Source: Leucoraja erinacea (lineage: Eukaryota). Taken from it: a DNA stretch of 64,000 nt. The stretch covers positions 6,448,001 to 6,512,000 of the forward strand of contig NC_073410.1 in NCBI RefSeq assembly GCF_028641065.1, written 5' to 3'. Under the pieces are notes generated by a model, which was not told the DNA's origin, searched no databases, and was given only the letters and a program-made list of their open reading frames with translations. Each line of letters starts with the position of its first letter. Position 1 is the first letter of the stretch. This document shows, piece after piece, positions 615 to 51,844 of the stretch. Both the position numbers and the translations under genes were made by a program.

Positions 615-725
615 GTGAAAGGCGAGTTCGTATCTACACCTACTGCCTCCCGGTTGTTAGCTCCCCAGCTGATGTTTATGCAGGAGCCAATGTCGGCATT
701 ATTGTGGGCTTTCTTTCTAAGATGG
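615..725 (+). CDS. SEC24A/B-like COPII coat subunit, internal exon (gene begins upstream of the window)
   Basis: ttttag|...ATGG|gtaag boundaries; translates GERRVRIYTYCLPVVSSPADVYAGANVGIIVGFLSKM, matching the SEC24A/B GERRIRVHTLCLPVV motif. Confidence 0.92.
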
Positions 726-1149
726 GTAAGACCATGAATTAACCATTTGGCATTAGAGGGTTAAACCATAATTATTGAATAGAAACATAGAAAGTAGGTG
801 CAGGAGTAGGCCATTCGGCCCTTCTAGCCAGCACCGCCATTCAACATGATCATGGCTGATCATCCAAAATCAGTACCCCGTTCCTGCATTCAGGCTCTCC
901 AGCATTTTGTGTCTATCTACGGTTTAAACCAGCGTCTGCTGTTCCTTCCAACACATATGATGTGGTGCAGGTACAATGATAATCTGGCTTGTAGCAGCAT
1001 CAGCACAGGCACATATATGCAGAAAACACACTGACATGAATTATGCTTATGCATAAATTGTACAATTAAAAGAAAAAGACTGCTGAAACAACACAGCAGT
1101 GCAAAAACACAATTAGAAAATGAGTCCATGGTAGTGGAAAAGGTGGTCC

Positions 1150-1420
1150 GTAGTACTCCATTGTTGAGATGTTATTAGGGTTGTGCAGGTCGTTCAAGAA
1201 ACTGATGGTTGTAGGAAAGTAGCTGTCCCTGAATTTGGTGGCTTTGGACTTGGACTTCTGTATATACTGCACGTTGCTAGCAGCAAGAAGAGGGCATTGC
1301 CCAGATAATGAGGTTCCTTGATGACAGATGCCACCTTCACCAGGCAGCGCCTCATACAGATGCTGTCAATTGTCCCCGTGATTGTGTGGGACTGGGCTGA
1401 GTACACCCGAGTCTCATGCA
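1150..1420 (-). mobile_element. Rex1/Babar-type non-LTR retrotransposon 3' fragment
   Basis: Minus-strand peptides RRCLVKVASVIKEPHYLGNALF and KFRDSYFP, typical of this ORF end. Confidence 0.65.
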
Positions 1421-2076
1421 TTTGAACTACCATAGCACCCGAGGTCAGGATCGTGCCCGGGTCTCTGGCCCTGTGAGGTAGCCTGATGTACAAAGATCCC
1501 ACAGGGTATATGAGGAGATATTGTACAGATAGCTGAGCATAGGCAAAAATATTTCACATTCATAATAATACTTTATTAGCCAAATATGTTTTGCAACATA
1601 TGAGGAATTTCATTTGCCATTCAGCCATACCAATAAAAACACACAATTTTAATAATAATAATAAGTTTATTTATATAGCACATTTATAGTCAATTTTCAT
1701 TGACCCCAAAGTGCTTTACATAATTTAAAAATCAGTTCCATACAAAGCATAAAGATGGGTTAACAAAATAATAAAATGCATCAACAGGACACAACATGTA
1801 ACATAACATCCACCACAGCATTCATCACTGTGGTGTAAGGCACAAAAAATGTTAACATGAACATCCACCACAGTGGTTAATATTACTTTTGGTTCAAGGT
1901 TAATATTACTTACCTGTAACTGATATGTAAAGATATATTTTTAATATTAAACTTTTTATTATTGAAGTTGAAAACATTAAAAAATGCATTTTCCAGGGAG
2001 ATTACCAGCAATCTGTGGGTTAGTAAAATTGTTTTGTGTCTGTCTTTACAAGATCTCTCTGTGTGTTTTTCTGCAG

Positions 2077-2252
2077 CAGTGGATCGCTCAGTGAGGCAGT
2101 CGCTCTCTAGCAGCCGGGATGAGCTGATTAAGATGTTGACTGACGTTCTTGTTGCTTATCGCACGTCAGCACGCAGCCCACAGCACGCCACACTCCCCAT
2201 CCCCAACACCCTGCTGCAGCTTCCACTCTACGTCCTGGCCCTCCTGAAGCAG
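2077..2252 (+). CDS. SEC24A/B-like exon (helical domain)
   Basis: ctgcag|...CAG|gtgaga; AVDRSVRQSLSSSRDELIKMLTDVLVAYR...LPLYVLALLKQ; phase continues from the previous exon. Confidence 0.93.
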
Positions 2253-2811
2253 GTGAGAGCCACAGAATACGGAGAAGACTGTTCAGCATTAAATTAGATG
2301 ACATCTATCTTGCCTCAACAGGGAGAACATGCAAACTCCACACATGCAGCACCCATTGAACCCAGGTCTCTGAAACTGTAAGGTGGTGGCTCCACCACTA
2401 CACCACTGTATAGCCCAATTGTGCCACGGTGTTGCCCTTTTGTAAAGGATTTATTGAGCATTTACTGTGCAAAATCTCTGAGAAACATATACTAGAATCT
2501 AATGACATTTGGCAATATTTGTTTTATTGTGGTAATAATTTTGGTTTGAGTTTGTTCGAAAATTTTTATTTTATTTTAACTTTTAATTTAACGTTGCCCT
2601 TTCATAAACGCTAGGCTGTGTTTCTAAATTGAAGCCATGACACCTCTCACAATACCAGGGAGGATAGTGGTGCACATTCCTCTCTGACATGAAGGACACT
2701 AAGGGATTGTTTGAAATTAAAGGGTGAAATGGTCAAGTAATTAGTCCCACAATGTCTGCTCCTTCCACAACCCTTGTTATTGTAGATTATGCCCTCTGAT
2801 CCTTGGACTTT

Positions 2812-3094
2812 AGACGTCAGAGATACAGCGTGGAAACATGCCGCTCAGTCCATGCCGACCTGCGATCATCCCGCACACTGGCACTACCCGACACATCAGG
2901 GACAATTTTACAATTAATATACAAACCTGTACGTCTTTGTAGTGTGGGAGGAAACCGGAGCACCTGGAGAAAACTCACATGGTCACGGGGAGAATGTACA
3001 ATCTCTGCACAGACAGCACCCATAGTCAGGATTGAACCTGGGTCTCTGGCGCTGTAAGGCAGTAACTCTACCGCGGCGCCACTGTGCCGCCCCC
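2812..3094 (-). mobile_element. V-SINE (HE1-like), near full length
   Basis: tRNA-like head GGCGGCACAGTGGCG...GGTTCAATCC and V-domain GGTTTCCTCCCACA on the minus strand; multiple copies in the window. Confidence 0.8.
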
Positions 3095-4466
3095 TATAAT
3101 GAGAAAATAAATAGTAGTCCGTTACCATACTATGAGATGTTACAAATTTTAACAGACCTCCACGCTGTTAATGTGGAAATTCTGAAACAGAGTCTATCCC
3201 CAGACAAAACAATTTTTCTTTAGATTTTGACATGATTAGGGTTAATAAACAGGCCATCCAGGACGATGGTCGAGGGCAGCCTCTGGCAGTTCATCACGCA
3301 AGAACCAGATACTTTAAACCAACTGATAAGAGCACACTGAGATATGCTTTCAATATCAGATAACAAATCAGATCTGTGTGAGATCTGAGCATTCCTCCGT
3401 CTTTCGTGCAACAGTGTTGCTTTTCAACTCTGACCTGATGAATTCCGCAAGTACGTCTTGCAGATAATTGAACACTCTGAGCCGAGAATATTCCCAGATC
3501 TCCAGCCCTGTCCCAGCTCGATATTTAGTTCAGAATTTCCATACAACATGGAAACAGGCACTTACATCCACCAAGTCCACACCAACCACTGATCACCCAT
3601 TCACATTGAAAAAGACACAAAGTGTTGGAATAACTGAGTTACTCCAGAACTTTTTGTATATTTTTCAGTAAACCAGCTTCTGCAGTTCTTTGTTCCTACT
3701 CATTCACATTAGTTCCATATTATCCCACTTTTACATCAACTCCCTACACATTAAAGGCTCTTGACTCAACTCTTCCCTGTCTCAACACTGGATGGCCAAC
3801 TTCCAGAGGCTAATTAACATGCAAACTCTGCACAGTCAACACCCAAAATCAGGATTGATCCCAGGTCACTGACGTACGTTAGAGGCTCTACCGCTGCACC
3901 ACTGAATTTCCCAACTGCACCACTGTGTCGACCTTTTGTGAAGGATTTAATTAACATTTACTGTGCAAAATCTCTGAGAAACATATTCTAGAATCTAATG
4001 ACATTTGGCCATATTTGAATGGTTGTAGCAATCATTTTGGTTTTAGTTTGGACCACACAATTTAAATTTAAACTTTTAATTTAACGTTGCCCTGTCAAAA
4101 ATGCTAGTTTGTGTTCTTAAATTGAAGTCACGACATCTCCCACAATATCTGGGAGGGTGGTGCAGGAAGGAACTGCAGATGCTGGTTTAAACCAAAGATA
4201 GGCTGAAGAAGAGTCTCGCCCTTGAACGTCACCCATTCCTTCTCTCCAGAGATGCTGCCTGTTCTGCTGAGTTACTCCAGCATTTTGTGTCTATCTTTAG
4301 GGAGGGTGCTGGTGGACATTCCTCTCTGTCATCGAGGATACTAAGGGATTTATTTAAGATATAGCATTGGGCATGAAGTAGATAATTTTCCAAGTCTTCT
4401 TGTAAAGATATGCATCCTAACCTTTCTCTTACTGATTTTTAAAATGCATTATGTTTTGCCCTCCAG

Positions 4467-4619
4467 CCTGCCTTCCACACGGGTCTTACAATGACTCTGG
4501 ATGAACGGATCTTCAGGATGTCTCAGTTGATGGAGCAGCCTCTGAGTTTTGTGTTGCAGATGGTTTACCCAGATCTGTATCGCATCGATGATTACCTCAA
4601 TGGCGAGACTGTTGACAAT
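4467..4619 (+). CDS. SEC24A/B-like exon
   Basis: ctccag|...AAT|gtgagt; 153 nt, phase 0; PAFHTGLTMTLDERIFRMSQLMEQPLSFVLQMVYPDLYRIDDYLNGETVDN (LDER and PxLYRID motifs). Confidence 0.92.
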
Positions 4620-4676
4620 GTGAGTGTTGTGGTTACACTGTAAATGGGCTCTTCCTTCAATCAAGCCATGTATACT

Positions 4677-5110
4677 CAGAGAGAGACAGACAGACAGAGA
4701 GAGGGAGAGACACAGAGAGAGACAAAGAGAGAAACACAGAGAGAAAGACACAGAGAGAGACTGAGTGACAGACAAACAGACTGAGAGACAGAGAGAGACA
4801 GACTCAGACAGAGAGAGACAGACAGAGAGAGGCAGAGAGAGAGAGACAGAGAGAGAGACTGAGTGACNNNNNNNNNNNNNNNNNNNNNNNNNNNNNNNNN
4901 NNNNNNNNNNNNNNNNNNNNNNNNNNNNNNNNNNNNNNNNNNNNNNNNNNNNNNNNNNNNNNNNNNNNNNNNNNNNNNNNNNNNNNNNNNNNNNNNNNNN
5001 NNNNNNNNNGAGAGCAAGAGAGAGAGAGGGAGAGACAAAGAGCGAGGGAGAAACAGAGAGAGAGAGAGAGATACAGAGAGACACTGAGGGAGACCGACTG
5101 AGAGAGAGAG
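4677..5110. repeat. (GA)n/(GACA)n compound microsatellite containing an assembly gap (N 4868-5009)
   Basis: Seen directly in sequence. Confidence 0.97.
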
Positions 5111-5177
5111 ATTGGTCGTGGTAGTGAGTTTAGCGAACAGGGCATCAAACTGTTTTTATTTTTTTTCTTTCTAACAG

Positions 5178-5285
5178 CAGGGTTCTGTGGAAACAGACAC
5201 CAGGCCAGTAAAGAGGCCGGCCTTGATACCGCTGTCTGCAGAAGGTCTTACACTGGCAGGGGCATTCCTAATGGACTGTGGTAAT
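5178..5285 (+). CDS. SEC24A/B-like exon (start of gelsolin-like domain)
   Basis: Polypyrimidine tract plus tandem CAGCAG acceptor (start 5178 or 5181); QGSVETDTRPVKRPALIPLSAEGLTLAGAFLMDCGN|gtaagt. Confidence 0.9.
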
Positions 5286-5539
5286 GTAAGTGTAAATGCC
5301 ACATGGAAACAGTTCAAGAGCATGGGAAGGGAACCTACAGACGTGTAGCCTCTTTACCAGTCCCAGACACCTTCCTGTCATGGCCACCTATAAAAGTCAA
5401 TGGTTTTGTGGAGGTAACATGCAGCAAACAACTCCAGGCATCAAGCACGTGTGAAGAGAGAAACTTGCCCCATTGCCTGTTAGAAAGGTGAAGATGTTCC
5501 TGACAGGGAATACCAGTCCTGAGATGCGACCCAAATGGG

Positions 5540-6090
5540 TTTAAATTGGAACTATTAAGATTCTTTCATATTATGACCATCACCGTCTAGGCCATTCAAT
5601 CCATCGTCCACTCCGCCTTTCAATCATGGCTAATCTACCTCCCAGATCCCATCCTCTTCTCCTTATAACCTCTGACTAATCAAGAATCTATCTATCTCTG
5701 CCTTAACTATATCCACTGACTTTTCCTCCACAGCCTCTGTGGGAAAGAATTCCACAGATTCACCACTCCCTGACTAAAGAAATTCCTCGCCATCTCCTTC
5801 CTAAAAGAACGTCCTAGTTCTAGACTCCCCCATGAGTGGAAACATCCTCTCCACATCCACTCTTCCCAAGACTTTCACTATTTTTAACATTTCGATGAAG
5901 TCCCCTCTTATTCTTCTTAACTCCAGCGAATATAGGCCCAGTGCCAACAAACGCTCATTATAGGTTAACCCACTCATTCCTGGGATCATTCTGGTAAACC
6001 TACTCTGGGCCCTCTCCAAGACCAGCACGTCCTTCCTCAGATATGGGGCCCAAACTTGCTCACAATATTCCAAATGTGGCCTGACCGGCG
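5540..6090 (-). mobile_element. CR1/HER1-like LINE 3' fragment
   Basis: EYCEQVWAPYLRKDVLVLERAQSRFTRMIPG...LGLYSLE. Confidence 0.9.
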
Positions 6091-6629
6091 CCTGAAAGAG
6101 CCTCTGGTGTCTGGTTTCTCTGCACCTGGGAGTTTGGGAACCAGGTGGTTTCTGGTGGATTGATGTTTGGGGAGTGCGTGGCTGAGCTCTGGGGTCTGGG
6201 TGACTGAGGATTGGGTCTGTGTGATCAACAGTTGGGGACGAAGTGATCGGCTGATGATTGGGTCAGGGTCAAGAGTGGCTGATGGTTGAGGTCTGGGTGA
6301 CAGGATTGGATCTGGGTGAACAATAGTTGGGGGACGGGGTGACTGGGGGACAGTTGGGTGGGGTACTGAGTTAGCAAGGGTTGGGGTCTAGGTGACTGAG
6401 AGATGACACCACAAGTGTTGCCCACATATACCTCTCTCAAACCCCATGTTCAAAAGGCACTGCCACCTACCTAAAGGAATATATTAACTGAAATCATGAT
6501 TGGCTTACTACACATTTTTATAGCTGTTTTTTTATAATCAGGAATACACTTATGTTCTGGGCTTGCGAGCACATAGGGCTCCCATTCCCTATACATCAAC
6601 ACCACCCAGTGTTGAGACAGGGAAGAGTT

Positions 6630-7090
6630 GAGTCAAGAGTGTTTAATGTTCATACGCTCCAGTAATAGAACTATGAAATGTTTATTTGCTGCAGCTTCAC
6701 CGGCTCATTAATGCAAAGACGCAATGAATAAAGATACAATAAAACAACAATACAATAAACTATCAAATAGAATAGGTAACCAGACTATAATAGTGCCCGC
6801 TGAAGTACATTGTGCAACCTATTAGAAAGTCCATAGTAGTTAGTTGCTGAGTTAGCGCAGTGCAGTTTAGTTCATGAACCTGATCGTAGATGGGAAGAAG
6901 CTGTTCTTGAACCTGGAGGTCCGATACCTTCTTACCGATTGTAGCAGCAAGCAGAGATTGTGGCCAGTGTGGTGTGGGTCTTTGATGATATTAGCTGCCT
7001 TCTTGAGGCAGTGAATCCTGAAGATCTCTTCTGTAGCGGGGAGGTCAATGCTCATGATGGACTGGGCAGTGCCCACCACTTTATACAACT
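6630..7090 (-). mobile_element. Rex1/Babar-type 3' fragment with tail
   Basis: HCLKKAANIIKDPHHTGH...RRYRTSRFKNSFFP; tail acactcttgact shared with the copy ending near 31735. Confidence 0.7.
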
Positions 7091-7290
7091 TCCTTCCAGT
7101 TATTGAACCAGGCCATGATGCAACCAGTCAGTATGTTCTCCACCGATGGAGTCTAGCAGTTTTGGATGAAAGGTGCTGCTGAGCACTGCTGGATAGCTCA
7201 TATATCATGTATTCTAAAGCGAATGTGTTTTGTTGACCACTGGGACCATACAATAATTGTGTGACCAGGATTGTGGGCTGTGTTCCGCAG

Positions 7291-7383
7291 GCTCTGTATC
7301 TCTGGGTCGGCAGACATTGCAACACTAATTTCCTCATTGACGTACTGGGTGTGACCAGTTATACCTCGCTACCAGCCACTGTG
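7291..7383 (+). CDS. SEC24A/B-like exon (gelsolin-like domain)
   Basis: ccgcag|ALYLWVGRHCNTNFLIDVLGVTSYTSLPATV|gtaagt; 93 nt. Confidence 0.92.
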
Positions 7384-7489
7384 GTAAGTCCTGTGTCTGT
7401 GTTGCCACTCCCTTTACTTCTGACCAGGTTATTAAACAGTTCAACCCTCATTATATAAAAAGGATAATAAACATGGGAGAAACTGCAAG

Positions 7490-7830
7490 AATCGTGAGAG
7501 GACGAGATCGGGTAGATGCACTGAATCTCTTGCCCAGAGTAGGGGAATCGATGATCAGAGGACATAGGTTCAAGGTGAAGGGGAAAAGATTTAATAGGAA
7601 TCTGAGGGGTAACTTTTTCACACAAAGGGTGGTGGGTGTATGGAACAAGCTGCCAGAGGAGGTAGTTGAGGCTGGGACTATCCCAACGTTTAAGAAACAG
7701 TTATTCAATTACATGGATAGGACAGGTTTGGAGGGATATGGACCAAGTGCAGGCAGGTGGGAGCTGGGACATATTGGCCGGTATGGGCAAGTTGGGCCGA
7801 AGGGCCTGTTTCCACACTCTATGACTCTAA
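7490..7830 (+). mobile_element. CR1/HER1-like LINE 3' end
   Basis: RGHRFKVKGKRFNRNLRGNFFTQRVVGVWNKLP; near-identical to copies at 12530, 45780 and 60700. Confidence 0.9.
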
Positions 7831-8117
7831 TAATCTACGTCCAGCAGGGGAAATAAAATCTTTCAGGAAAGACTGAACAGAGGGGGCCCTTTTCTTCAAT
7901 GTCGGAAAAACTGATGTAATCTGATGGAGGACTTTAAAGTTGTGAATGGATTTGTTAGGTCGATGCAGGTGGTTGTTTCCACGTGAAGGGAAAACTAAAA
8001 CCAAGGGGCAAAATTATAAACAGGATTAGGGATTGGGATCTTGGGATAGATTTTGTCTGGGCAAACATGAGGAAATGCCAAACAAATGTCAACGTCAATA
8101 CCTTTGCTGTGTTTCAG

Positions 8118-8221
8118 ACTTTGCTGCCCATTTTGGAAAGTCCAGCTTCTAAACAAACCCATGCGCTGCTGGAATCTTTAAGGAAGGAGAGAATTTACTA
8201 TGCACCGTGCTTTATCATTAA
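8118..8221 (+). CDS. SEC24A/B-like penultimate exon
   Basis: tttcag|TLLPILESPASKQTHALLESLRKERIYYAPCFII(K)|gtgagt; 104 nt, ends phase 2. Confidence 0.9.
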
Positions 8222-8544
8222 GTGAGTACAAGGTTTCTTATAATCTCATTTAAACTCTTTGGACTTTATGTCTCATAGACACTATTGGCGCTGACATTTA
8301 AACTGATTGATGTACAGTATTGGTGAATTGGTCAAGCATCAAAACAGGGAAATGTGCACCCATGTCGTCAGATTTGTCCCCATATTAAAGGGCCATTTGC
8401 ATCATTAGATGTCTCTAGCTTTGAGAAGTGGAGCTGAGAATGTGCAACAGTTGCCATCACAGCCATCCCGTCATTCCAAATTTGAATATCTATATTTGAA
8501 TAGTCCAAACGCACACATAGGCAAAGCAACCGGTTTGGTTTACT

Positions 8545-8820
8545 TTAGAGATACAGCGTGGAAACATGCCCTTTGACCCACCGAGTCTGCGCAAATCAAC
8601 CATCATTCTCTTTTCTATGGACAATTTACAGAAGCCAATTAACCTACAAACCTGCACGTCTTTGGAATGTGGGAGGAAACCGGAGTTCCCCGGAGAAAAC
8701 CCACGCGGTCACAGGGAGAACGTGCAAACTCCGGGGAGTCTGCACCCGCAGTCAGGATCAAACCCAGGTCTGTGGCGCTGTAAGGCAGCAACTCTACTGC
8801 TGCGCTACTGTGCCACCCCA
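8545..8820 (-). mobile_element. V-SINE (HE1-like)
   Basis: Same family as 2812-3094. Confidence 0.8.
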
Positions 8821-9843
8821 ATGACACATTCCCGCAATCGTCCAAATTATAGGGCTGTAAAATATGGCGTCGGATGAGATATGAAGCTAATTTACAGGAA
8901 TTTGTTACTTGAATCTCTCTATGAGGAGATTGATTGATTGAGTTCGTCCTGCAGCCCATAGATTTTAGTCTTATGATTATGTAGCTGAATACCTCTGCTC
9001 AGAATACACTTTAAATGCTTCCACTAAAAGACATCTGGGAGCAATTCCTGGCAATGTTTTAAAGTTCACTCACTGTGGGTGAGAGTGAGCAACCTGCAGT
9101 AACTGAAGGTTCAGTGCTGCCCAGTGGCAAATCTAGAGTACTCATAGCCAGTCTGTGTCCAGCCCTTCACACCATTCGGGGCTTTAGTATAAGATTGTCC
9201 CCAATATATTCGGTACAGATATACTCTTACATTGATTGATTGAGACAAAAAAGTATGGAAGAATAACTTGGATAACTGAGCAAGCACGGAAAATGTTTAG
9301 TGCAGGAAGGAACTGCAGGTGCTGGTTTACACCGAAGATAGACACAAAATGCTGGAGCAACTCAGCGGGACAGGCAGCATCTTTGGAGAGAAGGAATGGG
9401 AAAAGGTTTACTAAGGACAAACTACTTCTAATGGTTGGAGTATAGGGACCAAAGGTCACAGATTTGTGATGAATGGTAAAAGAAGCAAAGAGGAGATGAG
9501 AATTTTCTTTTACTTGGTAAATGGCCGTGCCCTCCTCACGTGCTGAAAGCAGATGTCATTGCAAAGTTTAAGAATAAGTTTAAGGTAATGTAGGAAAAGA
9601 GCATGAGATTGGCCGCCCCGAACTCTGTCACAGCATCAGCAGAAGCACAAATAAGCCGAAGTTCAACAAACCATGCACGTCTACGGTGATTTTAACATCA
9701 AAATACCTGTTGCCTCCTGTACTGTAAGTGATAATACTGTCCGCTTCACTCTGTGATGTTGATGACCAGATATTGGAGTGTTTGACAATTCAGGAATAGT
9801 TAAGTAATGCCATGGATTAATTCTGCTGGCCTTTCTTCGACAG

Positions 9844-9952
9844 GGATGACAGTACTTCACGGTCCATATTCATCCAGCATCTGATCAATGACCGCACTGA
9901 ATCAGCAATGTCCTACTATGAATTTCTGCTTCACCTGAAGGAGCAGGTATGA
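9844..9952 (+). CDS. SEC24A/B-like terminal coding exon
   Basis: cgacag|G DDSTSRSIFIQHLINDRTESAMSYYEFLLHLKEQV* (TGA 9950-9952); matches the SEC24A/B C-terminal DRTESxxSYYEFLLH motif. Confidence 0.93.
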
Positions 9953-10302
9953 AAGCAATCTCCTCAATGGCTCCAGAGATGACTGGTTCACCTCTGGCTG
10001 GCCGCTGAAGGCACAAAGACTCCTAAACTCTCATTTCTTTATATTTTTGTTTGAAGCTCGTGGATTATATTTTAATCATGGAGCCTTTGAAATGAAGTAG
10101 AAAACACTTTAAGTATATATGCAAGAAGTTTTTTTTCGGATTTGTGTATAAAACCTATTTAATCTTCAACTGAATGGAGAGCTAAGTGAATGAAGTAAGG
10201 ATGGCAGAAGATGTCAAGTATGGAACCCTCACCCTTACATGTGGAATATTTGCTGCTCGTGGAGTCTTATCAGGTTTCTTAGAAGTTAATTGTGGTTTAC
10301 TG

Positions 10303-11567: not shown

Positions 11568-11604
11568 ACATTAGACATGTGTCCCCCAATGTCTTTCCAA
11601 TGAA

Positions 11605-15436: not shown

Positions 15437-15756
15437 ATGGCGGACTCGGCTCAGTTCACAGAAAACGGCAGCGCCGGGGCGGGTCCCGACGGTTTCGACG
15501 CCGCTTTTTACAGTTTCGGCGGCCCGGTAGACAACGAGGCTTTCGGCAACGCGACGGACTCGAAAGCCGATGCGTCCAAAGGCGTGGGCGGCGGCGGCGG
15601 TGGCGGTGGTGTCGGCGGCGGCCCAGGCCACGAGGCCTCGGGGCGGGCGGGCGACGGGAGCCAGGCGGCGCCGTCGTCGCAGCAGCTACAGCCGCCGACC
15701 AACAAGGAGATGGAAGGCTCGAAGATCAACGCCAGCAAGAACGAGGAGGACGAGGG
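15437..15756 (+). CDS. hnRNP D/DL/AB-family RNA-binding protein, exon 1
   Basis: caagATGGcg start; Gly/Ala-rich N-terminus ending EGSKINASKNEEDEG|gtgagt (CBFNT-like motif of hnRNP D/AB). Confidence 0.93.
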
Positions 15757-26445: not shown

Positions 26446-26614
26446 GAAGATGTTTGTTGGTGGACTCAGCTGGGAAACAAGCAAGAAAGATTTAAGGGAC
26501 TACTTTTCTAAATATGGAGAAATTGTAGACTGCGTAATCAAAATGGATCCTGTGACTGGGCGTTCGCGAGGATTTGGGTTTATCCTCTTCAAGGATCCTG
26601 AAAGTGTAGAAAAG
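26446..26614 (+). CDS. hnRNP D/AB-like exon 2 (RRM1)
   Basis: tgcag|[56 protein letters not shown]|gtagga; RNP2 and RNP1 motifs. Confidence 0.96.
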
Positions 26615-35017: not shown

Positions 35018-35055
<38 letters not shown>

Positions 35056-35519: not shown

Positions 35520-35678
35520 GTATTAAATAAGGAACACAAACTTGATGGAAGAGTTATTGACCCCAAGAGAGCACAAGCTATGAAGGGCAAAGAACAAATC
35601 AAGAAAATCTTTGTGGGTGGGTTGGATCCTGACTGTCCGGAAGAAAAAGTGAGAGAATACTTCGGAACCTATGGAGAG
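35520..35678 (+). CDS. hnRNP D/AB-like exon 3 (RRM1 end, RRM2 start)
   Basis: ttcag|[53 protein letters not shown]|gtaaga. Confidence 0.96.
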
Positions 35679-36003: not shown

Positions 36004-36135
36004 ATTGAATCAATTGAACTTCCCATGGATACCAAGACCAACAAAAGAAGAGGGTTCTGCTTCATCACATTCAAAGAAGATAATCCAGTAAAGACGATTA
36101 TGGAGAAGAAGTTTCACGATGTGGGAACGAGCAAG
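36004..36135 (+). CDS. hnRNP D/AB-like exon 4 (RRM2)
   Basis: catag|[44 protein letters not shown]|gtatgg. Confidence 0.96.
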
Positions 36136-36413: not shown

Positions 36414-36507
36414 GTGGAAATCAAATTGGCTCAGCCTAAGGAAGTGTACCAGCAACAGCAGTGGGGAGGCAGAGGTGGACTCACAGGAAGAGGAAGAGGT
36501 AGAGGAG
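36414..36507 (+). CDS. hnRNP D/AB-like exon 5 (Q-rich, RGG)
   Basis: taaag|[31 protein letters not shown](G)|gtataa. Confidence 0.93.
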
Positions 36508-38249: not shown

Positions 38250-38417
38250 GACAAAGTCAGACCTGGAGCCAAAGCTACAACAGTAACTATTGGAACCCAA
38301 GTTATGGAAATTATAACTATGGCTATAACCAGAATTATGGTGGATATAGTGGCTATGACTACCCAGCATACAACTATGGCTATTATGGTTATGGACAGGG
38401 ATATGGTGATTATAACA
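38250..38417 (+). CDS. hnRNP D/AB-like exon 6 (GYN-rich low-complexity domain, frame-symmetric 168 nt)
   Basis: ttctag|[56 protein letters not shown]|gtaagt. Confidence 0.94.
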
Positions 38418-40688: not shown

Positions 40689-40759
40689 GTCAACCAGGCA
40701 CCTATGGTAAAGCTCCTAGGAGAGGAGGAAGTGGCCAAACTCAGTATAGGCCTTATTAG
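40689..40759 (+). CDS. hnRNP D/AB-like last coding exon (PY-NLS-like C-terminus); exon continues to a donor after 40794
   Basis: tttcag|SQPGTYGKAPRRGGSGQTQYRPY* (TAG 40757-40759); CAAG|gtaaag 35 nt after the stop. Confidence 0.93.
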
Positions 40760-42850: not shown

Positions 42851-43225
42851 GCGGCGGCAAATATAATAACAAGAGGGAATAGACATCTTTTGAAATCCTT
42901 TAAGTGAAGAAATCGGTCACAGATTTTTTTTGCATTATGGGCAGTGTTGAATTTGGACTTTTTACTTTTCCTTTGTATTTTTTCTTTTTAAATGCAAGTA
43001 ATACTTGACTGTGACATTGTTTTGTAAAGGGGACAAAAGTTCTTGTGTAAAGTTTTTAAACTAATATAATGTACCACCATTTAGTTTTACTGCTGGTGAG
43101 CACATCGTGGATCAGTGTGGCAGATGTAAGGGGAAAATGTGTTTTTTGTTGTATGAGCTCTGTGAAATATTTCCATTTGTAACTCCTCCTGCGTGATTAA
43201 ATAAAACGTTTGTACATGTTCTTGG
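42851..43225 (+). other. Probable terminal 3'UTR exon of the hnRNP gene
   Basis: Strong acceptor cccttctgtttttcag|; U-rich UTR; AATAAA at 43200-43205; a 3'UTR intron is typical of HNRNPD/HNRNPDL. Confidence 0.65.
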
Positions 43226-43504
43226 CATCTCTACTACAGTCCTTTATCTATCTATATATATTGAAAAAAAAATCAAAGCTTTGCCAACTTTGTGGAAGTG
43301 ATCAAAGTTAATAGCATTTAAGTTTTTCTACAGCATTGCTGTTGGATTGTATTGTAAGAACATTTTAACTTAATTTTTTTCTTGGAATTTCTTTAAGACC
43401 TCACTTGATCTAATTGAAATGGCATTTAATGCAGGAATGTTACTTTCATAAATTAATGGGGTAAAATTTGATGGGGGTGCAGAGATGGTGACTTTGGATT
43501 GTCA

Positions 43505-43775
43505 ATGGAAGCAGAGTTAATTAATTGGCAATCGGAAGATCGTGCAAGTCTGAGCAGAGGTGTTCAGCGAAACGATCGCAGAGTACTCCGTCTAGCCAAT
43601 ATATAGGATTCCACACCTGGAACAGCGGATACAGTAGATTAAGTTGGAGGAGGTGCAAGTGAATCTCTGCTTCATCCTCACCCCATTTCCTTCTCTCCAG
43701 AGATGCTGCCTGACTCGCTGTTACTCCAGTACTTTGTGTGTTGTATAAACCATATCTGCAGTTCCTTCCTACGCA
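43505..43775 (-). mobile_element. Penelope GIY-YIG fragment joined to an inverted terminal repeat
   Basis: Minus strand KQRFTCTSSNLIYCIRCSRCGILYIG*...DRFAEHL. Confidence 0.82.
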
Positions 43776-44259
43776 TTACTCTTGAGAACTTTGACTTTTC
43801 TGTGATATGTTAGCTGCATTTCTAGGGGAAGAGCAGATGGAGTCAGTGGGGTGAAATGCAGTGCACTTGAAGTGCATATAGAATTGCCGATGTTGGTTCC
43901 AGCATCTGCAGTTCCTTCCTACATATTTTGTCTGCTCCACTGCAAAATCTCCTCACGGTATGCCTACTTTGAAGTTCTCCGCTCTCCATTGAGAGTCATG
44001 CAACATCCTCGTCTGCTCCCTCTCTGTGGTATGAAAAGAGTCTTGACCTGAAATGTCCAATGTTCTTCACTCTCTCTTCAGAGATGCTGCCTATCCTGCT
44101 CAGTTACTCCAGCATTTTGTGCCTATTTTCTGAAGTGCAGATGGAGTCAGTGATGGTGAATCTGTGACATTCTTTGCCGCAGAAGGCTGGAGGCCGCAGG
44201 GTATTTTTAAGACAAAGATAGATAGATTCTTGATTAGTACAGGTGTCCGTGGTTCTGCG

Positions 44260-46085
44260 GAGAAGGGCATCCCTGGAGGAGTTTCGGGAACTAAGGAGCA
44301 AACTAAAAAAGATCAGAAGGGCAAAAGGGGGCCAGGAGAGGGCTCGAGCGGGTAGCATAAAAGACAATCCCAGAATATTTTATAAATACACTAGGAGGAA
44401 AAGGGTAACTAGAGAGAGAGAGTGGGACTTCTCAGGAATAAAAGTGGTCACCTCTGTGTGGAGCCACAGATGGGCAAGGTCCTCAATGTGCATTTACTGA
44501 GGAGAAAGACAGTAGGACATAGGAAATTGGAGCAGTCACTGGAAGTGTCATGAGAGCATTCAGGGTTACCGTCGAAGAAGTACTGAAGGTACTGTCGTGT
44601 TTGAAGGTAGACAAATCTCTGGGGCCTATTCAGATATATCCGAGGAGATTGCGGGAGCCCTGGTTGAAATTTATGAGTCGTTGTTAAATACAGAGCGATG
44701 CCAGGATTAGAGGGTGACAAATGTTGTACCTCTTTTCAAGAAGGGCTGCAGGGAAAATGCTGGAAACTATAGGCCGGTGAGCTTAACATCTGTAGTTGGT
44801 ACGTTACTGGAGAGTATTCCGAGGGATAGGAGTTACAGGCATTTGGATGGGCAAGGGCTGATTAGGGACACTCAGCACGGTTTTGTACATGGGAGGTCAT
44901 GTCTCACAAATCTGATTTTTTTTGAAGATGTGAGCAGAAAAGTTGATGAAGGCAGAGCAGTAGATGTGTACATCGACTTTAAGGCATTCAACAAGGTGCT
45001 GCATGGTAGGCTGCTCTGGAAGGTTAGATCTCATGCGATTGAAGGAGAGCTAGCTGAATGGATAGCAAAGTGTCTCCATGGAAGGAAGCAGAGGGTGATG
45101 GTGGAAGGTTGCTTCTCAGAATGGAGGCCTATGACTAGTGATGTGCCACAGGTTTCGGTGCTGGGCCCATTACTGTTTGTCATCTACATCAATGATTTGG
45201 ATGAGAACATACAGGGCAAGATTAGCAAGTTTGCTGATGATTAGTGGTTTTGCAGATAGTGAAGATGGTTGTGATCAATTGCAGCAGGATTGACCAGGTG
45301 GGCGGAGGAATGGTTGATGGAATTTAATACAGAGAAGTGTGAGGTGTTGCATTTTGGGATGTCGAACAAGGGCAGGACTTAATGGACAAGGGCAGGGTAA
45401 ATGGCAGGCCTCTGGGTAGTGTAGAGCAGAGGTCTAGGAGTACAAGTGCATGGTTTCATGAAGGTTGAGTCGCAGGTAGATAAGGAGGTCAAACAGGCTT
45501 TTGGCACTTTGGCCTTCATCAGTCAAAGTATTGAGTAGTTTAGTTGGGAGGTCATGTTGCAGTTGTATAAAACATTGATGAGACCGCATTTAGAATATTG
45601 TGTTCATCTGGGAACCATGTTATAGGAAAGATATTGTCCAGCTTGAAAAGGTTCAGAAAAGATTTAAGAGGATGTTGCCAGGACTGGTGGGTGTGAGCTA
45701 TGGGGAGAGGTTGAGTAGGCTGGGTGTATATTCCAAGGTGTGTAGGATGGTGAGGGGTGATCTTAGAAGTATACACAATCGTGAGAGGAATAGATAGGGG
45801 AGATGCACAGTCTTTTGTCCCGAGTAGGGGAATCGAGGACCAGAGGGCATGGGTTCAAGGTGAAGGGGAAAAGATTTAACAGGAATCGGAGGAGTAACTT
45901 TTTCCGCACAGAGGGTGGTGGGTGCATGGAACAAGCTGCCAGAGGAGGTAGTTGTGGCTGGGACTATCCCATTGTTTAAGAAACAGTTGGTAGACAAAAG
46001 TGCTGGAGAAACTCAGCGGGTGCAGCAGCATCCACGGAGCGAAGGAAATAGGCAACGTTTCGGGACCGAAACCCTTCAGACTGAT

Positions 46086-46121
<36 letters not shown>

Positions 46122-46565
46122 GGGAGGAGAAAAGGAAAAGGAGGAGCCCGAGGGCTGAGGGAGAGCTAAGAAGGGGAGGATACAGCAAGGGCTACCGGAA
46201 ATTGGAGAAGTCTATGTTTATGCCGCTAGGGTACAAACTGCCCAAGCGGAATATGAGGTGCTGCTTCTCCAATTTCCGGTGGTGCTCACTCTGGCCATGG
46301 AGGATGCCCAAGTCGGAAAGGTCGGATTCGGAATGGGAGGGGGAATTGAAGGGCTGAGCCACATGGATATCAGGTTGGTTAATACGGACTGAGTGTAGGT
46401 GTTGGGCGAAGCGATCGCGAAGCCTAAGCATGGTCAGGTACATGGAGAGGACAGGTTTGGAGGGTTATGGACCAAGCACAGGCAAGGGGGTTGAGGGTAG
46501 CTGGGACATGATTGGGCGAGTTGGGCTGAAGGGCCTGTTTCCACACTATTACGCTACGACTCTTA
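44260..46565 (+). mobile_element. CR1/HER1-like LINE RT region and 3' end, interrupted by a Penelope fragment at about 45990-46436
   Basis: NVVPLFKKG..NYRPVSLTSVVG..QHGF..RSCLTNL..KAFNKV..VPQVSVLGPLLFVIYINDLD..SKFADD. Confidence 0.93.
45990..46436 (-). mobile_element. Penelope-like 3' fragment (GIY-YIG C-terminus plus hammerhead-bearing repeat) nested in CR1
   Basis: RLRDRFAQHLHSVR...VAQPFNSPSHS..RKLEKQHLIFRLGSLYPSGINIDFSNFR*; CTGAAGGGTTTCGGTCCCGAAACGTT at 46079-46054. Confidence 0.88.
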
Positions 46566-47319
46566 AGGCAGTAATTTGGGGTTAGGAGGGAGAGATACAT
46601 ACATCAGCCATGATTGAATGCCGGAGTCGACTTGATGGGCCGAATGGTCCAATTCTGCTCCTATCACTTTCGTTGTCTAAATGATGGGCCGAATGGTCCA
46701 ATACTGCTCTTATCACTTATGGACAGGAGCGATGTGGACCAAATGCAAGCTTTTTCCATTGAGAGTAGGGAAGATTCAAACAAGAGGACATGACTTCAGA
46801 ATTAAGGGACAGAAGTTTAGGGGTAACATGAGGGGGAACTTCTTTACTCGGAGAGTGGTAGCGGTGTGGAATGAGCTTCCAGGGGGAAGTGGTGGAGGGA
46901 GGTTCGATTTTATCATTTAAAAATAAATTGGATAGGTATATGTATGGGAAAGGAATGGAGGGTTGTGGTCTGAGTGCAGGTAGATGGGACTAGGGGGGAA
47001 TAAGTGTTCGACACGGACTAGAAGGGCTGAGATGGCCTGTTTCCGTGGTTATATACAATATACAATATATGCAAGGGTTTATTTGTCACATTGCACAAAA
47101 AGTGCAAGTGAAATGATACGTCAGCAGCGATACAATGATAAAGGGCACACACAAAACCACAATAAATTTTTAACATAAACATCCACTACAGCATTCATCA
47201 CTGTGGTGGAAGGCACACAATTTGGCCAGTCCTCCTCCATTTAGGTGGGTCTAGTGAAGCTGGGACATGTTGGCCAGTGTGGGCAAGTTGGGCCGAAGGG
47301 CCTGTTTCATTCTATGACC

Positions 47320-47470
47320 GTATGACGTAAGCTGGGGGCAGCAGCCACGTGACCCCAGCACCATTAGCCCCACCCCCCATGGGGCGTGGCCACCCGCTCT
47401 GCATCACGTGGGGCCATGACGCAGACCGGCTGGTCATGTGACCCGTAGTCGGAGGCAAGATGGCGGAGGT
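47320..47470 (+). promoter_or_regulatory. BLOC1S2 promoter with clustered CLEAR/E-box, M-box, CRE-like and YY1-like motifs
   Basis: TGACGTAA 47323, CCACGTGAC 47345, TCACGTGG 47404, TGACGCA 47417, GGTCATGTGACC 47432, CAAGATGGCGG over the ATG; CpG-rich. Confidence 0.75.
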
Positions 47471-47589
47471 GGAGCCGCGTCCGTTGAGCGATGCCGGTGC
47501 AGGCCCAGCGCATGGGGTCGGCACGGCCGGCAACGGGCACGGGGATGCGGGGGAGCAGGAGGTGGCGGGGGGCGGAGGCAAGAGGACCG
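47460..47589 (+). CDS. BLOC1S2: BLOC-1 subunit 2, exon 1
   Basis: aagATGG start in a CpG island; MAEVEPRPLSDAGAG...GKRT then G|gtaagc; phase 1 joins exon 2. Confidence 0.85.
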
Positions 47590-48344
47590 GTAAGCAGCTG
47601 GAGCCGGTTAGTTATCTCTCCGCCCGGTCTCTCTCTGCCCGGGGTTGCCATGATCATATTGAATGGCGGTGCAGGCTCGAAGGGCCGAATGGCCTACTCC
47701 TGCACCCAGCAATTTTGTGTACCTTCGGCCTACTCCTGCACCTATTTTCCATGTTTCTATGTTGGTTCCCTCTCCCCTTGTCCCATGCACCGGGGAGGAG
47801 ACAGCAACGCAGCGTTGCATGGAACTAAAACAAATGCCGGGGACCGCTCGGTCTGTAGTCCCATTGCCTGCAACACCACACGCACTATAAAAACAACAAT
47901 GGCTGCTTTACAATATATTTACCAGTGATTTCCAGGGCATAACTGGTAAACAGTTATTTCCAGGCGTTAAAATAACTAAATCTAATCCTCCTACCAGTTA
48001 ATGTTGAGTTGCTAATTATATGCAACGGGAAATGTAGCTGGTTGGAAGTATTTTGTTCACTGGACCGTTCATCTTCCAAATTCAGACTTGCGCAACATCC
48101 ATTTGCTCAACATTCAAGCAAATACTGTTCCTTGTGTTAACATTTTCAAGTCCCATTCTAAAGATCCATGCAGAAATTTTGGCTGAAATTACATGGCATA
48201 ATATGAAGCAACTCGCTGTTTAATGTGGACATATACTCTACCCATGTAAAACCACAAGGGAATTCACCTTGCTGCTCGGTCATTATTTGTTTCTTGATTA
48301 ACATTATGGAAACAAACATCTGGGTATATTTACATTATCGTGTG

Positions 48345-48490
48345 TGGGGCAGCACAGCTGGAAGAGCTGTTGCCTCACAGTGCCAGAGACTATGTTCGAT
48401 CCAGACCTCAGGTGCTGACTGCATGAAGATTGCATGTTCTCCCTGAGACTGGGTGGGTATCCTTCAAGTGCTCCTGTTTCCTCTAGTTTC
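48345..48490 (+). mobile_element. V-SINE fragment in BLOC1S2 intron 1
   Basis: ggggcagcacagctggaagagctgttgcctcacagtgccagagac..gttcgatcc. Confidence 0.7.
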
Positions 48491-48795
48491 ACACCAATCT
48501 TTTCAAGTCAGAATTTATTATCTATGAAATTAAAAATCCATTTACATATGTTAAATAATAAAATACGAAATGCACATTAAACCTTTTGACTACCACCACA
48601 GTTTTATATAAAATACCAACGTGGAGGACTACACGTTTGTTTCTCCAACAACTGTACGTTTCCAAAGATGACTTATGATTGGAAATTTTCTAATTTGGAT
48701 TAAAAAAAATAAAAATTGTGGATCTTGGTTCTATTCTCTTATCACCTCCACATTTTGAGTCAATGGGTTTACTCGTTATATATTTTCTCTGACAG

Positions 48796-48912
48796 ATGAT
48801 TTTGGAGTGGAGACAGCAGAGGAAGCTACAGAACCTTCAGAACCAGACATAAATGAACTCTGTAAGGAGATGTTTACAAAAATGTCCGTCTATCTGCAAG
48901 GAGAGCTTACAG
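48796..48912 (+). CDS. BLOC1S2: BLOC-1 subunit 2, exon 2
   Basis: gacag|DDFGVETAEEATEPSEPDINELCKEMFTKMSVYLQGELT|gtcagt. Confidence 0.96.
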
Positions 48913-49950
48913 GTCAGTTGGTGGTTGGTTTTGCAGTGATTAAAATCCACAGCTGACCTCTGCAACTTGAGCAGTGTATGTCATGTTTCACACCATTGTA
49001 ATCATCCTTTGCACATTTCCAGGATAAGCTTTTTTAGAAACAACTGGATTTTTTGTCTTGTTGCATTTGGGATTGTTGCATTAGAAGCAGTCTGCATAAT
49101 TCAGTGCATTGCAAAAGTAAATACTTTTGAAATGATTTTGACATTAATCTGAAGTTATAATATCAAGGTGACATCGTACATCTTTAAGATGCTTCTGCTG
49201 GTCAATAATGTACTGATTTATCCTGCTTGATGTAAACTGAGCTATTTTCTGAGAAAACTAGTGCAGTAAAATTACATTTCCATTTGCCTTTATTATAGAA
49301 ACGAGGTAATGTCATTTTAGTATAAAAACAAGAGGAATTAACTGGAACACAAGAATCAGTTGAGGGAACCAAATAAATTAGTAACGTGTATGGGAAGGGC
49401 TGGGTGAAGAATTAAAACAGTTGAAAGATGTGACCATTATATGGTATAGTACATGATTGTGAAGATTGAGAATAAGGAGAGGGTAGTCGAGTGAAGGAAG
49501 TGAAAGGTGAAGTCTAAATGATTCATTTGCATTATTTTGTGGGTATGGGTGGTGGGAGAGAGTGTGTGTTCAAGGAGCTGGTATGTTGACTGAGGGATAA
49601 TGGAAGAACAAAATAAACACATTAATGTGAAAGGGTAAAATTATGACTGGATGTATTTATTAACAGAAAATACCAGGTTCTTGAAGACAGCTAACTGGTT
49701 CCTTTTTTAAAAAAAATTGAATGTTGCAGTAAAATAATGTAATGCTTGTTAATATGAATAATGAGTTCATGTAGGTTGATGAACTGTGTTTGTAATCAAT
49801 CTGACAACTTCAATTTGAAGGTAAACATTGTCAGCATCACTTTAGGTTGAGCATGAAAACTTACACCTATTGCTATCTTTAACAGACTATTGCACATTGC
49901 AGAAATAACTGATCACTGAGTTATTGATGTATGCCAAACTGTTTACTTAG

Positions 49951-50070
49951 CTACCTGTGAAGATTACAAACTATTGGAGAACATGAACAAAGTGACTGGC
50001 CTTAAGTACCTTGAGATGAAGGAGATCGCTGTTAATATTAATCGCAACCTCAAAGATCTAAATCAGAAAT
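49951..50070 (+). CDS. BLOC1S2: BLOC-1 subunit 2, exon 3
   Basis: cttag|ATCEDYKLLENMNKVTGLKYLEMKEIAVNINRNLKDLNQK|gtgagt. Confidence 0.97.
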
Positions 50071-50985
50071 GTGAGTAGTTGGTATTTCAAGTTTCTGGCA
50101 TGCAAAGGGACACACCACTCATTGTTTAATTGGTAACCACTTTAACTCCTTTTCAGAGATTTGTTTGAGTGAATCTTAGTGACTTATTTGAAGTTCTTTG
50201 AGATTAGCAACTGTTTGATGTTTCTTGATTAATACACTGTCAAGTTAATTACAAACTGGATTTTTTCCCCACTTCAAAAGCTGTGCGCTGAATGTTGCAT
50301 TCGTCTAGACAGGGAAGCCAGAGCTGAAACCAATTTTTATGGATGGTGCGCACAATGTCCTCGGCATTCTCATGATGAATGAGGATCTGCAGAGCTGAGC
50401 CCAATACGTTAATTAATCTGTGCTTTATTGCATTTTATAGCATAGAATTGTAGTTTGTCCAATATTCAACTTCACATTGAGGTGGTTGCTTTAGAAAAAG
50501 GACATTTCTGACACAAAGAAATTGGACAGTTCTCAAGAATGGGACCCTTATTTAATCCAGTGATCCACCTGTTTTAGTTTATGGGTAAATCTCCATTGGA
50601 AGTGGGAAAATGCAGCCTTATGACACAATTGTATGTACGATCTTAGCATCTTAGCAGTACAATCTTGTGTATATCAGCATGGATTTATCAAGGGGAAATC
50701 ATGCTTGACTACTCTTCTGGATTTTTTTAAGGATGTAACAAGTAGAATGAATAAGGGCGAGCTAGTGGATGTGGTGTATCTGAACTTTCAAAAAGCCTTT
50801 GACAGGGATAGTGTGCAAAAGCCTTTGACAAGAGATAGTGTGCAAAATTAGAGCACATGGTATTGTGGATAGGGGATTGATGTTGAGTGCAAATCATTTC
50901 AGTTTATTTCACAATAACATTTGTTTATGTTGGTTTTGTTAGGGGACATGTGGGTAATAAGATCTGTATGTTCCTTATCTCCTAG

Positions 50986-51090
50986 ATGCTAGCCTACAAC
51001 CGTACCTTGACCAGATCGGTCAGATTGAAGAACAAGTAGCGGCACTGGAACAAGCAGCATACAGATTGGATGCATACTCCAAGAAACTAG
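50986..51090 (+). CDS. BLOC1S2: BLOC-1 subunit 2, exon 4
   Basis: cctag|[35 protein letters not shown]|gtggga. Confidence 0.97.
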
Positions 51091-51812
51091 GTGGGAACTC
51101 ATGCCTTTAGTTTGTAACAATCTTCCAATCTCTGCAGTTCAGTGAACATCTACTTTTCGAGAATAGCATAGGATTTTGAATTTGTGTTCAATATAGCTAA
51201 CCAGAAATGTATAAATATATAATAAAATGCAGAGCTAACTAAGTGAGTAATTAGAGTGATAGAAAGTGGGCAATTAATTATGATAAACGGGGAAATGACA
51301 GGTGCAGTTAATGGGTATTTTACATTAGGCTTCACTATACAGCATCCGAAAAGTAGTTGTAAATTGAGAGTGGGGAGCTATGAAAAATATCATCACTAGG
51401 GAAATATTACTGAACAGATTATCGAAGTTGTGGACTGACAAGTTTCCAGGTCCTGATGGATTTCATTTTAGTCTCAAGAGAATTGGCTAGTGAGGTAGTG
51501 GATGTGTATTTAAATTTCCGATATTCATAGTACATTCCATTAGATTGAAAAATAGGAAGTACAACTCCTTTATTCTAAATGGGAACAAGACAAAGCCGGA
51601 AACTATAGATCAGAATTGAAAGATTTAATGTTTTCATGTGTTGGATGTCTATAGTTTATTTGTCCATGAAACTGATTTATCATGTTGTGTTACTGAACCT
51701 GCTGCGAGCATACACACTTACACAAACCCATTATAGACAAAAATTGACATCTTTGTTACAGCCCTTTCTAAGTTGTAACACAAAATTCTCATGCATTTTT
51801 TTTCTTTTATAG

Positions 51813-51844
51813 AAGCCAAATTTAAGAAATTAGAGAAGCGATGA
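51813..51844 (+). CDS. BLOC1S2: BLOC-1 subunit 2, exon 5 (stop)
   Basis: ttatag|EAKFKKLEKR* ; total CDS 504 nt = 167 aa. Confidence 0.95.

Follow-up and report, generated by a model that had tools for sequence, protein, structure and literature searches.

In the literature on cargo specificity, the four SEC24 paralogs of mammals stand for the whole vertebrate set (PMC3622177). The hnRNP D/DL/AB subfamily has three human members, located on chromosomes 4 and 5 (PMC2453138), and the paralogon to which these chromosomes belong has been paired as (4,5),(8,10) (PMC8040251, PMC2453138). A published skate table (PMC10115646, SI Table 3) equates chromosome 34 (with 15) with 1-alpha and chicken 6, chromosome 1 with 2-alpha, and chromosome 11 with 2-beta. 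The same paper reports 68 cases of differentially retained 2R ohnologs in chondrichthyans, such as wnt6b and cspg5. Extra ohnologs in cartilaginous fish are a general phenomenon already known, and ohnolog retention in skates is known as such; no description of the SEC24 paralog presented here was found in the literature.

The window is a 64,000-nucleotide stretch of chromosome 34 (C34) of Leucoraja erinacea, and it holds, all on the + strand, a SEC24A/B-like gene, which we call SEC24X, an hnRNP D/DL/AB-like gene and BLOC1S2. A preliminary description had seen these genes as adjacent, intact and co-oriented, and spliced models with open frames and GT-AG introns agree. Its bounds are exact, as 615 is the first SEC24X exon start inside the window and 51844 is the BLOC1S2 stop. 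SEC24X has 20 exons (C34:6,417,997-6,457,952) encoding 827 amino acids, of which the window takes in only the last seven (exons 14-20, 615-9952), and its spliced product is identical to a named RefSeq protein (P0001). The hnRNP gene has seven exons (15437-40759), and its product of 367 amino acids is identical to P0435; both genes already carry automatic "like" annotations. BLOC1S2 (five exons, 47460-51844, 167 amino acids) is the sole BLOC1_2 locus found in the genome. The features of the window are as follows.

615..725, + strand, SEC24X exon 14 of 20 (exons 1-13 lie upstream, C34:6,417,997-6,447,641)
2077..2252, + strand, SEC24X exon 15, helical domain
4467..4619, + strand, SEC24X exon 16
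5178..5285, + strand, SEC24X exon 17, start of the gelsolin-like domain
7291..7383, + strand, SEC24X exon 18
8118..8221, + strand, SEC24X exon 19
9844..9952, + strand, SEC24X exon 20, TGA stop at its end
15437..15756, + strand, hnRNP D/DL/AB-like exon 1, start codon, within a CpG island
26446..26614, + strand, hnRNP D/DL/AB-like exon 2, RRM1
35520..35678, + strand, hnRNP D/DL/AB-like exon 3, end of RRM1 and start of RRM2
36004..36135, + strand, hnRNP D/DL/AB-like exon 4, RRM2
36414..36498, + strand, hnRNP D/DL/AB-like exon 5, end of RRM2 and RGG-rich linker
38250..38417, + strand, hnRNP D/DL/AB-like exon 6, Gly/Tyr-rich tail
40689..40759, + strand, hnRNP D/DL/AB-like exon 7, PY end and TAG stop
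47460-47589, 48796-48912, 49951-50070, 50986-51090 and 51813-51844, + strand, BLOC1S2 exons 1-5, single copy

Both SEC24X and the hnRNP gene are extra copies, as the preliminary description had held. The skate genome has three SEC24A/B-type loci, SEC24A (C11:49.8 Mb), SEC24B (C1:140 Mb) and SEC24X (C34:6.4 Mb), and four hnRNP D/DL/AB-type loci, with HNRNPAB, HNRNPD and HNRNPDL located elsewhere. The notion that the window genes are the genome's only members of their families, or an assembly artefact, has practically no probability left and is refuted by these loci and by the SEC24 tree: the canonical paralogs are all found and spliced elsewhere in the skate, SEC24X is only ~48% identical to SEC24A/B, and orthologs occur in many species.

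SEC24X is of the A/B type, scoring 826 and 792 bits with SEC24A/B and 325 and 281 with SEC24C/D. In the SEC24 tree (25 rows, 744 columns), the skate protein forms a clade with shark, chimaera, coelacanth and bichir proteins (support 100/100). This clade lies outside both the SEC24A and the SEC24B clades, each of which has its own skate member, and is sister to SEC24A+SEC24B (96/90), with the vertebrate sequences held together at 100/99. The duplication is placed after the invertebrate outgroups and before the gnathostome split, with the order relative to lamprey and hagfish supported only at 76/75. The SEC24X lineage is older than the split of sharks and bony fish, and its presence in coelacanth and bichirs means that it is not shark-specific. 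Among the rows listed, which were compared with SEC24A and SEC24X references only, it was not found in most bony vertebrates. The positions and phases of 16 of its 19 introns agree with SEC24A and SEC24B, and a retrocopy origin is rejected because these introns are shared.

The branch leading to SEC24X is long. Its root-to-tip distance is 1.03 compared with 0.22-0.26, a rate about four times faster, and the stem carries 0.47, about half of the excess change. As a result, long-branch attraction could explain part of the placement outside A+B. SEC24X might then be a segmental duplicate or transposed copy of SEC24A or SEC24B, made after 2R and before the split of sharks and bony fish, which fast evolution has dragged out of its parent clade. 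Besides the branch length, this is favoured by the AU test, where the rejection of the X+A and X+B groupings is borderline (p-AU 0.047 each). We nevertheless consider such an origin quite improbable, since SEC24X and SEC24A each stand head-to-head with a SAR1 gene, since SEC24X is on the chromosome expected to carry a copy from the first genome doubling (1R), and since the tree topology fits a 1R origin.

The SAR1A-SEC24X pair sits just upstream of the window and is the telling synteny of the region. Two SAR1 loci were found in the skate, each head-to-head with a SEC24A/B-type gene (SAR1A-SEC24X on C34, the other SAR1 with SEC24A on C11), while no SAR1 remnant was found in the 140 kb searched around SEC24B. 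The occurrence of the pair on two paralogon chromosomes implies that the arrangement predates the first genome doubling and suggests that human SAR1A formerly had a SEC24 partner. The preliminary description had placed the region on the equivalent of human chromosome 10, and gene mapping and the published table both bear this out, with C34 corresponding to chicken 6 and human 10; the scaffold is not a 4q/5q equivalent into which BLOC1S2 was transposed. SEC24X lies on a paralogon chromosome, and its topology matches (4,5),(8,10). The conclusion of the preliminary description holds up, but its argument from BLOC1S2-PKD2L1-SCD-SEC31B synteny is not supported, since PKD2L1 maps to C15 and the closest flanking genes are SPOCK2, DDIT4, TYSND1, SAR1A and CDH23. 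A search for SCD (PF00487) brought up no SCD-like locus, its two matches being single-exon desaturases on C9 and C5, and a search for CWF19L1 (PF04677) gave matches on C22 and C6 only. Accession numbers hint weakly at the same SEC24X neighbourhood in bony vertebrates. The association of SEC24 with hnRNP genes is not a conserved multi-gene block across the paralogons: on C11 a distance of 4.3 Mb separates SEC24A from HNRNPAB, and on C1 SEC24B is 45 Mb from HNRNPD/DL.

The hnRNP gene belongs to the D/DL/AB subfamily by its CBFNT motif, two RRMs, Gly/Tyr tail and common exon structure. It represents a fourth clade (support 100/96 to 100/99), outside D, DL and AB and found so far only in cartilaginous fish. 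This clade is older than the split of sharks and bony fish and lies on a paralogon chromosome. Two proteins considered as further members were rejected as score-summing artefacts (in the tree P0135 joins D, and P0158 is a lamprey protein). The trees asked for by the preliminary description give SEC24X its own clade, sister to A+B, but do not settle the hnRNP branching order. With the tail included, the window gene groups with AB (94/87); with the RRMs only, it lies outside D/DL/AB (80/79); removing the chimaera row gives a polytomy; and constraining it to AB, D or DL is never rejected (p 0.19-0.21). Beyond the chromosome, no paralogous neighbour links it to HNRNPAB or HNRNPD/DL. Of the two ohnologs that had been claimed, SEC24X branches as expected, and the case for the hnRNP gene is made by its age and its chromosome.

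These disagreeing trees leave some room for a history in which SEC24X is an ohnolog but the hnRNP gene reached this locus before the gnathostomes radiated, as a duplicate of either AB or the D/DL tandem pair. It matches DL in the sizes of its last two exons (168, 68) and AB and D in that of exon 3 (159), and a nearby SCaMC-like gene of apparently foreign origin indicates that the region takes in transposed genes. Such a move is unlikely in our view, because the gene lies outside D, DL and AB, all three of which include rows from cartilaginous as well as bony fish, because its paralogon chromosome has no member of the family in humans, and because consecutive accession numbers suggest that it adjoins SEC24X in seven species.

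The SEC24X protein has all five Sec23/24 Pfam domains above cut-off, in the order zinc finger, trunk, beta-sandwich, helical and gelsolin, with all four zinc cysteines kept. Its alignment-based predicted structure (pLDDT 83) superposes on SEC24B with a TM score of 0.96 and 1.8 Å. In the skate protein, the B-site residues Y437, Y496, R750 and R752 are retained, and glutamine occupies the positions of R430, R435 and both C-site residues, R541 and K813. Across the SEC24X rows, R435 has given way to another residue in 11 of 12 but in none of the 26 other rows, R541 is replaced in 7 of 12 and kept in five shark rows, K813 is kept in two bichir rows of the 12, and R752 is serine in the three coelacanth and bichir rows. 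The N-terminal region has ~80 residues instead of the ~300-480 Pro/Gln-rich residues of SEC24A/B. It bears a basic motif common to elasmobranch and bichir SEC24X and missing in 250 other SEC24 proteins. The last residues of this motif, K-[V/I]-H-P, resemble the (K/R/Q)VxP signal that polycystin-1 uses for cilia; this is a lead only, and a very improbable one. One RNA-type contig spans six consecutive SEC24X exons, and a pseudogene is rejected because the frames are open and the RNA is spliced.

The altered cargo-site residues predict that SEC24X exports different proteins from the ER. The same changes could instead be decay, in a redundant copy with the history described here that is under relaxed selection and has no cargo of its own. 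The failure to find it in most bony vertebrates of the listed rows, the patchy replacement of R541, the loss of R752 in the bony-fish rows and the low RNA depth on the exons point that way. This too seems unlikely, since SEC24X is intact in every chondrichthyan group sampled, shows 98% identity in a comparison of two skates and 65% with chimaera, keeps its zinc cysteines as well as an N-terminal motif that sharks and bichirs alike retain, and acquired about half of its excess change on the stem.

We therefore favour, at a probability of about 80%, the reading that the third SEC24A/B-type gene and the fourth hnRNP D/DL/AB-type gene are ohnologs from the first vertebrate genome doubling, and that SEC24X, by prediction, works as a COPII adaptor for an altered range of cargo. 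An ancestral SAR1-SEC24 pair would have been doubled at 1R; one copy would have given SAR1B-SEC24A (C11) and SEC24B (C1) at 2R, while the other stayed next to SAR1A on C34 as SEC24X. The latter would have changed fast and then disappeared from most bony vertebrates, so that SAR1A stands by itself in humans. SEC24X is predicted to join SEC23 on membranes that carry SAR1-GTP and to bind export signals through its retained B-site core. With glutamine in place of both basic C-site residues, the skate protein would take up C-site cargo such as SEC22B inefficiently, and its short basic N-terminus would shift the site or timing of recruitment. Like its paralogs, the hnRNP protein would bind RNA in the nucleus through its two RRMs. 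A bolder proposal, possible but doubtful, is that the jawed-vertebrate ancestor had six SEC24 adaptors rather than four (SEC24X on C34 and a third SEC24C/D-type on C35), with SEC24X neofunctionalised by the exchange of its long disordered N-terminus for a short basic targeting motif and by re-cut cargo sites, so as to serve an ER-export route lost in tetrapods and teleosts.

As a fifth SEC24 lineage, SEC24X offers natural substitutions at residues that cell biologists have mutated (R541, K813, R752) and a ready-made test for the divergence of COPII cargo sites, and the hnRNP gene fills that family's empty chromosome-10 slot. Compared with SEC24A and SEC24B (the Sec24I class, PMC4419792), SEC24X has the same domain order and fold, most of the same introns and, in the skate, the B-site residues, but it is far more distant from either than they are from each other (75% identity) and differs in its N-terminus and in the four glutamines. 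The hnRNP gene shares with HNRNPD, HNRNPDL and HNRNPAB the CBFNT motif, two RRMs (74-80% identical), the RGG linker, a Gly/Tyr tail ending in PY and matching exon sizes, but forms a separate clade. Like the 68 chondrichthyan ohnologs of PMC10115646, SEC24X is kept in cartilaginous and some early-branching bony fish and apparently lost elsewhere. Both extra genes may be among those 68; what sets this locus apart is that two such genes adjoin, beside a conserved SAR1-SEC24 pair.

The SEC24-like, hnRNP-like and BLOC1S2 genes of the window (C34:6,448,001–6,512,000) are adjacent, intact and co-oriented, as the preliminary description had stated; all three are on the + strand. The SEC24-like gene (SEC24X) has 20 exons, GT-AG throughout, of which exons 14–20 lie inside the window; its product is identical to the RefSeq 'Sec24B-like' protein P0001, to which the exon at window 2077–2252 is a 100% match. 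The hnRNP gene (hnRNP X) has 7 exons and a product identical to P0435.

BLOC1S2: window 47460–51844, + strand, 5 exons; the sole BLOC1_2 locus found in the genome search

Both SEC24X and the hnRNP gene are extra copies, since SEC24A, SEC24B and three other D/DL/AB-type loci are present elsewhere in the genome; the locus count, which finds all of these separate, bears out the earlier claim. Sec23/24 trunk matches in the genome family search lie at C34:6.44, C11:49.8, C1:140.0, C34:9.31, C1:104.8 and C35:10.84 Mb (C-numbers denote contigs), in addition to loci read as SEC23-like, and splicing identifies C11:49.8 Mb as SEC24A and C1:140 Mb as SEC24B. Several SEC23-like matches, on C128 (two places), C996, C1482 and at C9:37.5 Mb, are possible tandem copies or uncollapsed haplotypes; three are on small unplaced contigs and have near-equal scores. 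Four genomic loci match hnRNP exon 3: the one in the window, D at C1:94.61, DL at C1:94.66 and a fourth at C11:45.48. Around the last lie collagen, class-III aminotransferase, Wnt and NDK domains, which we take to be the HNRNPAB setting. A PIF1-like helicase match beside this locus (C11:45.458 Mb; L052:8610–8948) is either PIF1 itself or a Helitron-type element. At C5:83.75–83.84 Mb, four strong single-exon RRM matches inside 93 kb may be a tandem array or one gene with several RRMs.

Among the best 120 of 494 matches, the close relatives of SEC24X (62–86% identity) are from batoids, sharks and chimaera, and the remaining rows, mostly named SEC24B, are 43–49% identical. A representative search (150 of 4,380 listed) adds coelacanth and bichir proteins. 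Eight of 258 listed proteins, six from chondrichthyans and one each from coelacanth and reedfish, score closer to SEC24X than to SEC24A, which suggests that SEC24X is absent from tetrapods and teleosts. The ML tree was built from 25 of 38 aligned rows, leaving out 13 redundant, unnamed or distant ones. It supports the X clade (100/100), A+B (96/90) and the vertebrates (100/99), with cyclostomes placed without firm support. Trees constrained to group X with either A or B are 6.6 log units worse (p-AU 0.047 each), a borderline value, and the X branch is long. Orthology of the bichir protein is supported outside the tree by the motif FPxxxKQxKxK[V/I]HP at the N-terminal start of elasmobranch and bichir SEC24X, which occurs in 18 of the 30 X proteins compared and in none of the 250 others. 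Sixteen of the 19 SEC24X introns coincide with SEC24A and SEC24B introns. Consecutive or near-consecutive SEC24X and hnRNP accessions in two skates, Narcine, Hemitrygon, Mobula hypostoma and two Chiloscyllium species suggest that the adjacency is kept across these batoids and sharks; in Hemiscyllium the two are on contigs of equal length, yet ~470 numbers apart. The SEC24X and INA accessions of reedfish lie 56 numbers apart, a weak indication because FGFR1/FGFR2 accessions show that numbering is not strictly by chromosome.

X-type hnRNPs make up 11 of the best 120 listed proteins (143 hits, 152 candidates); ten of them are named chondrichthyan proteins and the other is an unnamed fragment. The search was shallow, with human HNRNPD not among the 120, so that it is a weak test of the putative loss of hnRNP X from bony vertebrates. 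D, DL, AB and X each form a well-supported clade, and because D, DL and AB each hold skate and bony-vertebrate rows, hnRNP X is older than the cartilaginous/bony vertebrate split. No single branching order of X relative to D, DL and AB is supported. The Callorhinchus row P0131 (UniRef V9KVZ5) has X-type RRMs (95%) and a tail 83–87% identical to AB and 67–69% to X, and is a chimeric transcript model or the result of gene conversion; this AB-like tail probably caused the X+AB grouping in the tail-inclusive tree.

Along C34, SEC24X is preceded by SPOCK-type domains, a DDIT4-type RTP801 gene, a trypsin-domain gene read as TYSND1, and SAR1, and is followed by the hnRNP gene, BLOC1S2, a SCaMC-like carrier and CDH23. 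DDIT4, TYSND1, SAR1A and CDH23 presumably lie at human 10q22. SPOCK2 is at human 10:72 Mb (Lamb table, PMC8040251). The genome search finds two SAR1 loci:

C34, coding exons up to 6,406,165, − strand: SAR1, ~12 kb from the SEC24X start
C11, + strand: SAR1, with ~39 kb between it and the SEC24A 5' end; SEC24A is on −

We assume that human SAR1B and SEC24A are likewise arranged head-to-head. Both are near one 5q31.1 marker (PMC5085221). PKD2, PKD2L2 and PKD2L1 family matches, named by chromosome, are on C1, C11 and C15, respectively. BLOC1S2, NDUFB8 and PKD2L1, which we take to be neighbours at human 10q24, are split in the skate: BLOC1S2 is among 10q22-type genes, NDUFB8 is 7 Mb off at C34:13.4 Mb, and PKD2L1 is at C15:35.75 Mb. 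A divergent SCaMC-like (SLC25A23/24/25-type) mitochondrial carrier on the + strand, with eroded EF-hand-like exons, runs from window ~60,300 to C34:6,523,500 (L011, L012), and one carrier exon shares 55–58% identity with copies on C925, C31 and C39. The SCaMC family belongs to another paralogon, so this gene may be transposed.

In the skate table for linkage groups I/Q, chromosomes 15+34 are 1-alpha (= chicken 6), 35 is 1-beta, 1 is 2-alpha and 11 is 2-beta (PMC10115646, SI Table 3); contig numbers were read as published chromosome numbers, and gene content fits. These assignments make SEC24A (C11) and SEC24B (C1) 2R sisters with SEC24X (C34) as the 1R outgroup, matching the tree obtained. SEC24X is very probably a 1R ohnolog; the hnRNP gene is a likely ohnolog. 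The proposal of a chr10-equivalent duplicate retaining two ohnologs lost in mammals thus largely holds: the genes are real, intact and extra, the SEC24X tree fits a 1R copy, and C34 is assigned to the chicken-6/human-10-type 1-alpha, but PKD2L1 is on C15, the neighbours are instead of SPOCK/DDIT4/TYSND1/SAR1/CDH23 type, and the hnRNP branching order is without support. A third SEC24C/D-like gene with 13 collinear exons lies at C35:10,833,000–10,850,000 (L055–L056). It has 348 of 613 residues identical to C34 SEC24C versus 318 to C1 SEC24D, and 61 versus 31 shared sites, and is a candidate 1-beta ohnolog; if it counts as a SEC24C/D-type ohnolog, there would be six SEC24 genes. The literature search, with subscription journals mostly outside its coverage, found no description of the SEC24X paralog. 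The rows listed from one supplementary table include one 'sec24' row (Sec24a) and 43 'hnrnp' rows (PMC10115646), and SEC24, HNRNPD/AB and SAR1A are absent from the rows listed, for bony vertebrates only, in another (PMC8040251).

One contig of run X1, taken as RNA by guess, spans six consecutive SEC24X exons with a depth of 12. In runs X18 and X22 raw reads cover the SEC24X exons at low depth, and most reads are repeats. Four Logan proteins in the SEC24X cluster are on 2.3–3.2 kb contigs. All five Pfam domains are kept, and the predicted fold (pLDDT 83; residues 1–78 low-confidence) superposes on SEC24B with TM 0.96 and 1.8 Å. In human numbering, taken from the PDB chain, the named B-site residues are R750, R752, Y437 and Y496 and the C-site residues R541 and K813 (bioRxiv 2022.01.31.478454). 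All four of these B-site residues are retained in skate SEC24X, and positions 541 and 813 are Gln. Gln also occurs at 430 and 435, presumably B-site rim positions. R435 is substituted in 11 of the 12 X rows, K813 in 10, R541 in 7, R430 in 5 and R752 in 3; R430, R435, R541 and R752 are invariant in 26 non-X SEC24 rows. We take R541 to be a SEC22B contact. SEC22B is a SEC24A/B cargo bound at the SEC23–SEC24 interface (PMC5007090). With domains, fold and B-site kept and positions 541, 813, 430 and 435 changed, SEC24X would be a working adaptor with changed cargo, and a cargo function distinct from that of SEC24A/B is plausible.
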